Positions 5,561-6,076 of a stretch of 64,000 nt of DNA are shown piece by piece (position 1 is the first letter of the stretch; each line of letters begins with the position of its first letter). Made by a program: the position numbers and the translations under genes. The stretch lies in contig NC_081360.1 of assembly GCF_030684315.1 (NCBI RefSeq), positions 44,153,424-44,217,423 of the forward strand. Reading direction: 5' to 3'. The stretch is from Stegostoma tigrinum. Its lineage: Eukaryota. Under the pieces are notes generated by a model. The model had not been told where the DNA came from and made no database searches. It was given only the letters and a program-made list of their open reading frames with translations.

Positions 5561-6076
5561 CTGAAGAATCAAAACCCAAAACAGGTGCAAAAATTCCTAC
5601 TGATAGCAATTCAGATAGCACTAAAACTGAACAAAGACCACATATTACATCTGATAGCAAACTAGAAGTACTAAAGAAGCCATCAAGTCCACCACCATCT
5701 TCAACCAAAAGGCCAATTCGAAGAGAGAAGCAAAGGAGCCATGATTATTATCCTGACATAGTGCCCTTTGATGAGCTAATAGACACTGGAGCCATAGCAC
5801 CGATGTTCTTAGAAAAGTTGCCACCAGAAGTCATTGTACAAAACGGAGAAGATGTTTTACTGTTTTGCCTTGTAAAAGGTGTACCATCACCCTGTGTACT
5901 TTGGCTGTACAACCAACGCATTGTTGAAGAATCTTCATTGTGTTCCATTAAACATGATGGGTTGCTATGCAGTTTAAAGTTACAGAAAGTCAGCCAGAAT
6001 CACAGTGGCACTTATTCATGCAAAGCGATTAACCCTGCTGGAGAAACAGCGTGCAACACACTACTTAGAGTGACAG
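5561..6076 (+). CDS. ttn: additional titin exon: Ser/Pro/Lys-rich linker plus one I-set Ig domain
   Basis: gcatag|ct...acag|gttggc, 516 nt, phase 1-1, stop-free. Ig reads APMFLEKLPPEVIVQNGEDVLLFCLVKGVPSPCVLWLYN...HSGTYSCKAINPAGETACNTLLRVT. Confidence 0.88.

Follow-up and report, generated by a model that had tools for sequence, protein, structure and literature searches.

A candidate fourth novex exon in shark titin

The titin exon map has been treated as settled from the human gene, and comparative studies rest on it. In the published human map only intron 46 is found between exon 46 (novex-2) and exon 47 (PMC5852582 Table 1), which agrees with the direct succession of these two exons stated in an earlier note on this DNA. 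A 516-nt titin exon of Stegostoma tigrinum, here labelled exon X, lies between the equivalents of novex-2 and exon 47, at positions 5561-6076 of the 64,000-nucleotide stretch that was analysed (the window). This raises the question of whether it represents a fourth novex-type cassette, as that note proposed, and how such an exon might be used. By six-frame translation, the window covers I-band sequence of a titin gene of shark type, in which a series of Ig exons, two frames of several kilobases each (7697-16390 and 21286-25248) and approximately forty middle-Ig exons were recognised. The features relevant to exon X are the following:

2660..2848, + strand: exon 44 equivalent of 189 nt, covering the second half of the proximal Ig, the upstream anchor (from its size and 74-79 % identity to bat and bird titin)
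3577 to ~3860-3950, + strand: broken novex-1 (exon 45) remnant (from tblastn and the tree)
4376..5260, + strand: novex-2 (exon 46) equivalent, 885 nt, two Ig domains (from sequence, homology and the tree)
5450..5455, + strand: TGCATG, 111 nt 5' of the exon X acceptor (from the window sequence)
5561..6076, + strand: exon X, 516-nt phase 1-1 cassette between novex-2 and exon 47 (from sequence and orthologues)
5563..5781, + strand: exon X linker, 73 residues, rich in Ser/Thr and Lys/Arg, ending in YYPD-[IV]-VP (from the alignment)
5782..6075, + strand: exon X Ig domain of the I-set type, with cysteines in strands B, C, D, E, F and G (from Pfam, AlphaFold2 and the Cys table)
6077..6092, + strand: apparently conserved 5' end of the intron after exon X, GTTGGC followed by TGCATG at +10 to +15 (6086-6091) (from the window sequence and homologue read-through peptides)
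6373..6378, + strand: second TGCATG in the same intron, with further GCATG at 6216 and 6226 (from the window sequence)
6509..6559, + strand: exon 47 equivalent, 51-nt micro-exon (from its size; it directly follows exon X in the frog model P0218)

The two anchors agree with the published sizes, exon 44 being 189 nt in all eight vertebrate species of Table 1 and exon 47 between 45 and 57 nt across the same species (PMC5852582). The coordinates, length, phase 1-1, KKPSSPPPSSTKRPIRREK stretch and TGCATG at +10 (6086) previously described for exon X all match the sequence. Its frame is free of stops and bounded by AG/GT ends (ttgcatag/CTG ... ACAG/gttggc), and the chance of an open frame of 171 codons is ~6e-5 at the local intronic stop frequency. 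Exon X shows structural features of a novex-type exon, being located in the titin locus between exon 44 and the N2B exon, symmetric and frame-keeping with AG/GT ends, and composed of a unique linker and an I-set Ig domain.

Relationship to novex-1 and -2 and to novex-3

Database proteins of seal, manatee, crocodile and birds served as references for novex-1 and novex-2. No match was found between exon X and the novex exons compared, with its Ig domain sharing 29-33 % identity with seal and manatee novex-1, 22-31 % with novex-2 of the same two species, and at most 34 % with any part of a bat novex-3-type titin. A tree was constructed from 49 Ig domains over 94 columns, including fourteen exon X rows drawn from the 44 exon-bearing proteins and window sequences; near-duplicates were omitted, as were the chimeric models P0185, P0197, P0198, P0205, P0211 and P0213, which were used for presence only. 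The fourteen exon X rows form one side of a branch with 100/99 support, apart from both novex-1, which groups with the window remnant (99/98), and the shared novex-2 Ig (99/99). Within the exon X clade, the sharks branch off first from the bony vertebrates. Exon X is single-copy, and its origin by recent duplication of a neighbouring Ig was rejected on the basis of a best own-genome match of 34 % and no supported sister in the tree, whose deeper forks are poorly resolved. Its own Ig clade, its position within what is intron 46 of the published human map and its conservation from sharks to birds support the reading as a fourth novex-type cassette.

The places of the known cassettes are occupied by other features of the window. 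Orthology to novex-1 and the position directly after exon 44 belong to the remnant at 3577, which has kept its acceptor, lost the core Trp and acquired a stop at 3858-3860, and which is matched by seal, manatee and crocodile novex-1 in tblastn (30-44 % over 72-93 aa; E 7e-8 to 1.5e-11). The model P0001 of Heptranchias also departs from the novex-1 frame, after 17 residues. The novex-2 orthologue lies within 4376-5260, where the second of the two Ig domains is orthologous to the one Ig that novex-2 has in gar, birds and mammals (48-57 % identity to seal, manatee, bilby, penguin and gar). The extra internal Ig of the shark novex-2 (4666-4968) forms a clade of its own with Heptranchias only (100/100), and the gar, bird and mammal models do not contain it.

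Several further observations pertain to the remainder of the window. The novex-3-type region, a single exon in human, falls into two long frames, 7697-12802 and 12857-16390, and a donor is present at 12770; the split at 12770-12857 may represent a short intron or a break. The first of these frames incorporates a tandem array of ~18-residue repeats (~10600-11620). Near-identical blocks of middle-Ig exons recur between 45200 and 64000, for example at 54433-55651 and 62377-63595, which agrees with the expansion of 6-Ig super-repeats in cartilaginous fish.

Distribution and age of exon X

A profile search returned 60 proteins and, with cluster members included, 44 carry exon X in whole or in part, while a representative search returned 150 proteins, mostly multi-Ig, among which P0140 is the sole true orthologue. 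The word-index homologue searches covered proteins of up to 2000 residues, so that full-length titin models fall outside them. Named carriers include Heptranchias, spotted gar, reedfish, the frog Staurois, two turtles, saltwater crocodile and nine birds, with exon X being partial in the turtle and crocodile models (its end only in saltwater crocodile). The nearest named protein is that of Heptranchias perlo (84 % over 171 aa). Identity of the Ig domain to that of the window ranges from 52 to 87 % overall, with 87 % in Heptranchias, 62-66 % in birds, 60 % in gar and reedfish and 54 % in Staurois, and exon X is 516-519 nt long in 8/8 models that hold it whole. Along the shark-to-penguin path in the tree, the exon X Ig has accumulated ~0.63 changes per site, compared to ~0.83 for the novex-2 Ig. 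In the NCBI database the exon X models are filed as separate genes, under names such as myosin light chain kinase-like, myopalladin-like and myosin-binding protein H-like.

On this sequence evidence, exon X is ancestral rather than shark-specific and has been kept from sharks to birds, and its origin would lie in the common ancestor of jawed vertebrates. Seven copies (P0202, P0206, P0207, P0208 and P0226-P0228) group with gar on long branches and have lost Ig cysteines and linker features while keeping the post-donor motif; these are possibly decaying teleost copies.

The linker and Ig domain encoded by exon X

The Ig domain is intact, as had been noted from the sequence, with a Pfam I-set score of 57.8 bits covering profile positions 4-90/90. 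AlphaFold2 modelling of the last 113 residues of exon X with 47 added rows gave a mean pLDDT of 90.9, with 95/113 residues at or above 90; the Ig part reached 96-99 and the modelled part of the linker was of low confidence. When exon X was modelled in full length from 21 close homologues, the pLDDT was 40.5. The Ig model superimposes on titin I-band and M-band Ig structures with an rmsd of 0.7-1.3 A, and on titin and related muscle Ig structures at ~1 A with 18-33 % sequence identity. A PDB sequence search with exon X identified no specific relative, and the ESM Atlas yielded generic I-set clusters only.

The domain is also Cys-rich, as described earlier, with six cysteines, one apiece in strands B, C, D, E, F and G, compared to two to five in the 42 other Ig exons counted in the window. 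Among 38 orthologues, the cysteines of strands E, F and G are present in 38/38, that of strand B in 33/38 and those of strands C and D in 28/38. Residues 102, 153 and 164 on strands B, F and G make up the CysB-CysF-CysG triad in the model and Cys table. According to PMC5766482, this triad permits force-triggered disulfide isomerisation and occurs in 21 % of I-band domains. It is thus not rare, and the invariant strand-E Cys is the unusual part of the exon X Ig.

The description of the linker as Ser/Pro/Lys-rich holds in sharks (14 % Pro) but not elsewhere, with Pro contents of 5 % in penguin and 9 % in gar. A Pro-rich linker was rejected as a conserved feature; the Ser/Thr and Lys/Arg content is kept while the prolines are not. 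A conserved YYPD-[IV]-VP motif is situated at the end of the linker and outside the Ig fold in the model.

Splice signals at the exon X donor

The donor of exon X (CAG/GTTGGC) had been considered weak, and was read together with the TGCATG as a sign of regulated inclusion. This donor is ordinary for the gene. GTTGG starts 7/46 Ig-exon donors called in the window, one of these seven calls being doubtful, while GTAAG starts only 2/46, and the exon X donor ranks ninth lowest of the 46 with a leave-one-out matrix. Its weakness as a special sign of regulation was rejected on this comparison, but the UGCAUG part of the argument is strengthened by conservation across species. TGCATG occurs within 30 nt of 2/46 donors, with 31 sites in the 64 kb window. 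The donor of novex-2 (GTGGTT; 5261-5266) is among the five lowest of the 46 and is read through as G-G-Y in bird and marsupial models; it may also be conserved as a weak site.

The 44 exon X proteins include 38 that run past the donor, five chimeric models which leave the exon mid-domain, and one, from the frog, which splices to exon 47. All 38 read-through peptides start with G-W-[QH]-[LM]-H-[VA] (37 by pattern and one by eye), and the three variable residues correspond to intron bases +8, +9 and +16, leaving the hexamer at +10 to +15 untouched. In 38/38 cases the peptides determine four bases of the hexamer, and the two wobble bases are inferred. The 38 sequences come largely from birds and include near-copies, and do not amount to 38 independent tests. 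Past the conserved residues, the tails diverge over 15-72 aa. The first 16 bases of the intron after exon X thus appear, from these peptides, to be conserved in all 38 homologues which run into it. Since the variation spares the hexamer and the tails then diverge, these bases are taken to form a conserved intronic element and not a coding tail.

Exon X carries a mark expected of RBFOX-regulated exons, an apparently conserved (U)GCAUG close to the donor in the intron downstream. Binding of RBFOX to downstream GCAUG usually enhances inclusion, while many GCAUG sites are unbound (PMC11874969). Counting against the RBFOX reading, a further TGCATG lies upstream of exon X, and binding as close to the donor as 10 nt might impede inclusion instead of promoting it. 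Furthermore, the copies P0206, P0227 and P0228 keep the intron motif despite having lost Ig cysteines, which counts against the reading of exon X as a regulated cassette.

Exon X as an optional cassette

Exons 44, 46, X and 47 all meet in phase 1, so exon X can join alone (44-X-47) or after novex-2 (46-X-47), and the frog model P0218 joins exon X to exon 47 at the same donor. The homologue junctions derive from automatic gene models of unstated RNA basis, most of which do not splice to exon 47. In chicken heart, a novex-2 product spanning exons 46-49 of 532 bp was reported in the supplement of Chen et al. (PMC5852582). A bird model predicts 538 bp for this product without exon X and 1057 bp with it. 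As 532 bp fits the former and not the latter, the reported adult heart product skips exon X, bearing in mind that PCR favours the shorter form. This fits at most minor inclusion of exon X together with novex-2 in the adult heart.

Exon X is likely to be an optional cassette of titin. The reading preferred here, to which a probability of roughly 0.68 is assigned, is that of an ancestral cassette which is normally skipped and which RBFOX-type factors switch on in a particular muscle or stage, so that the titin spring gains a linker and a redox-sensitive Ig towards its Z-disc end. Skipping would be the default state, and binding of an RBFOX protein to the conserved UGCAUG at +10 of the following intron would lead to inclusion in some muscles or stages. 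Inclusion would add the 73-residue linker and one Cys-rich Ig to the Z-disc-proximal spring. The Ig, with its B/F/G triad and three further cysteines, could serve as an unfolding unit tuned by redox state, and the YYPD motif beside it is a putative binding site.

The frequent read-through of the donor could alternatively indicate a last exon of the novex-3 kind, with translation continuing to a stop 42 codons on and yielding a short titin that stops ahead of the N2B region. This is improbable, given that beyond the six conserved residues the tails vary in sequence and length even among close relatives, and the changes within the six follow the splice motif rather than the protein. The conserved tail, stop and poly(A) signal of a novex-3-like terminal exon are not seen together here, with no AATAAA or ATTAAA in 6077-6508, between exon X and exon 47 of the shark. 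Many of the 38 models are raw gene calls on genomic contigs which necessarily end at the first stop, and the donor is used in one frog model. A similarly small likelihood is attached to an obligate pairing, with exon X as the latter part of a novex-2 unit of two exons (46 + X) that, outside mammals, are never used apart. Novex-2 is joined to exon X in eight models from shark, gar and birds, seal and bilby join it to the remnant, and no join of exon 44 to exon X occurs among the models, the searches having covered proteins of up to 2000 aa. Yet gene predictors join adjacent open exons regardless of their use, a 44-X join would appear in titin models of more than 2000 aa, beyond that range, and the chicken novex-2 product fits 46-47-49 without exon X.

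It might also be argued that exon X is disused in this shark and conserved only through slow evolution, given the decay of novex-1 in the same locus. Novex-1 is indeed broken, but with its stop, its missing core Trp and a branch of 1.15 it differs from exon X, in which every I-set core residue and the two splice sites are intact and the branch is 0.028, making disuse very improbable. The optional, normally skipped cassette is thus retained as the preferred reading.

A probable remnant of exon X in mammals

Of four mammal models with novex-2, those of elephant seal and bilby run on into sequence resembling the start of exon X, while those of wallaby and manatee do not. The seal and bilby tails align to penguin exon X with scores of 128 and 120, against shuffled maxima of 57 and 63, respectively, and 0/1000 shuffles reach either score. 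These remnants end after 110 and 51 residues, respectively, without the YYPD motif or the Ig. Judging from these two automatic gene models, rather than from DNA, exon X appears to have decayed in therian mammals. In the mammal line the Ig part would have decayed, with the acceptor and the 5' part of the linker still recognisable.

A broader scenario may be put forward tentatively, although it is on the whole unlikely. A fourth, RBFOX-switched ancestral novex cassette would have lost its Ig in mammals and kept its acceptor, such that TTN intron 46 of mammals, perhaps including humans, hides a cryptic truncating exon that ends titin after novex-2, while sharks, having lost novex-1, rely on the two-Ig novex-2 and exon X. 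If the mammal remnant has a live acceptor, it would bear on truncated TTN transcripts.

Prior record and implications

No exon between 46 and 47 is listed for human, chicken, lizard or frog in Table 1 of PMC5852582, which gives intron 46 only. The accessible text on elephant shark connectin names novex-I to -III and no fourth novex exon (PMC12241362), and the available portions of PMC11033294 and PMC7370890 name novex-1 to -3. The literature searches returned no description of a fourth novex titin exon, with Granzier 2007, Seeley 2007, Noguchi 2007 and Hanashima 2017 falling outside their coverage; it is possible, though doubtful, that exon X is already drawn in the papers on chicken and zebrafish titin from 2007 and 2017.

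Exon X is real, ancient and apparently overlooked. An Ig exon of ~450 million years, more conserved than novex-2, alters the ancestral titin map, and novex cassettes would have been lost lineage by lineage, exon X in mammals and novex-1 in these sharks. Exon X furthermore explains a set of database genes misnamed as 'myosin light chain kinase-like' and 'myosin-binding protein H-like'. The conserved UGCAUG is a candidate switch for novex splicing, a process not controlled by RBM20 (PMC5852582). The effect on muscle mechanics is probably small, amounting to one Ig and a short linker.

Comparison with known titin exons and domains

Exon X resembles novex-1 and novex-2, cassettes of low or tissue-limited use (PMC5852582), in its phase 1-1, its unique linker plus Ig and its position between exons 44 and 47. 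It differs from them in that its Ig belongs to a separate clade at ~30 % identity, it is located after novex-2, and it is missing from Table 1 for all eight species (PMC5852582). Furthermore, its Ig is broken in both mammal models that show it, and it is followed by a conserved UGCAUG at +10. With novex-3 (exon 48) it shares the exon cluster and a read-through stop, but novex-3 is a multi-kilobase last exon, whereas exon X measures 516 nt, has a conserved donor and is not followed by a poly(A) signal ahead of exon 47. In elephant shark, Novex-I is reported to be used in skeletal muscle (PMC12241362), while novex-1 is broken in the shark analysed here. The exon X Ig has the B, F and G cysteines of the I67/I69-type triad domains (PMC5766482), and its model lies within 0.7-0.8 A rmsd of I67-I69, but it differs from them in carrying three further cysteines, on strands C, D and E.
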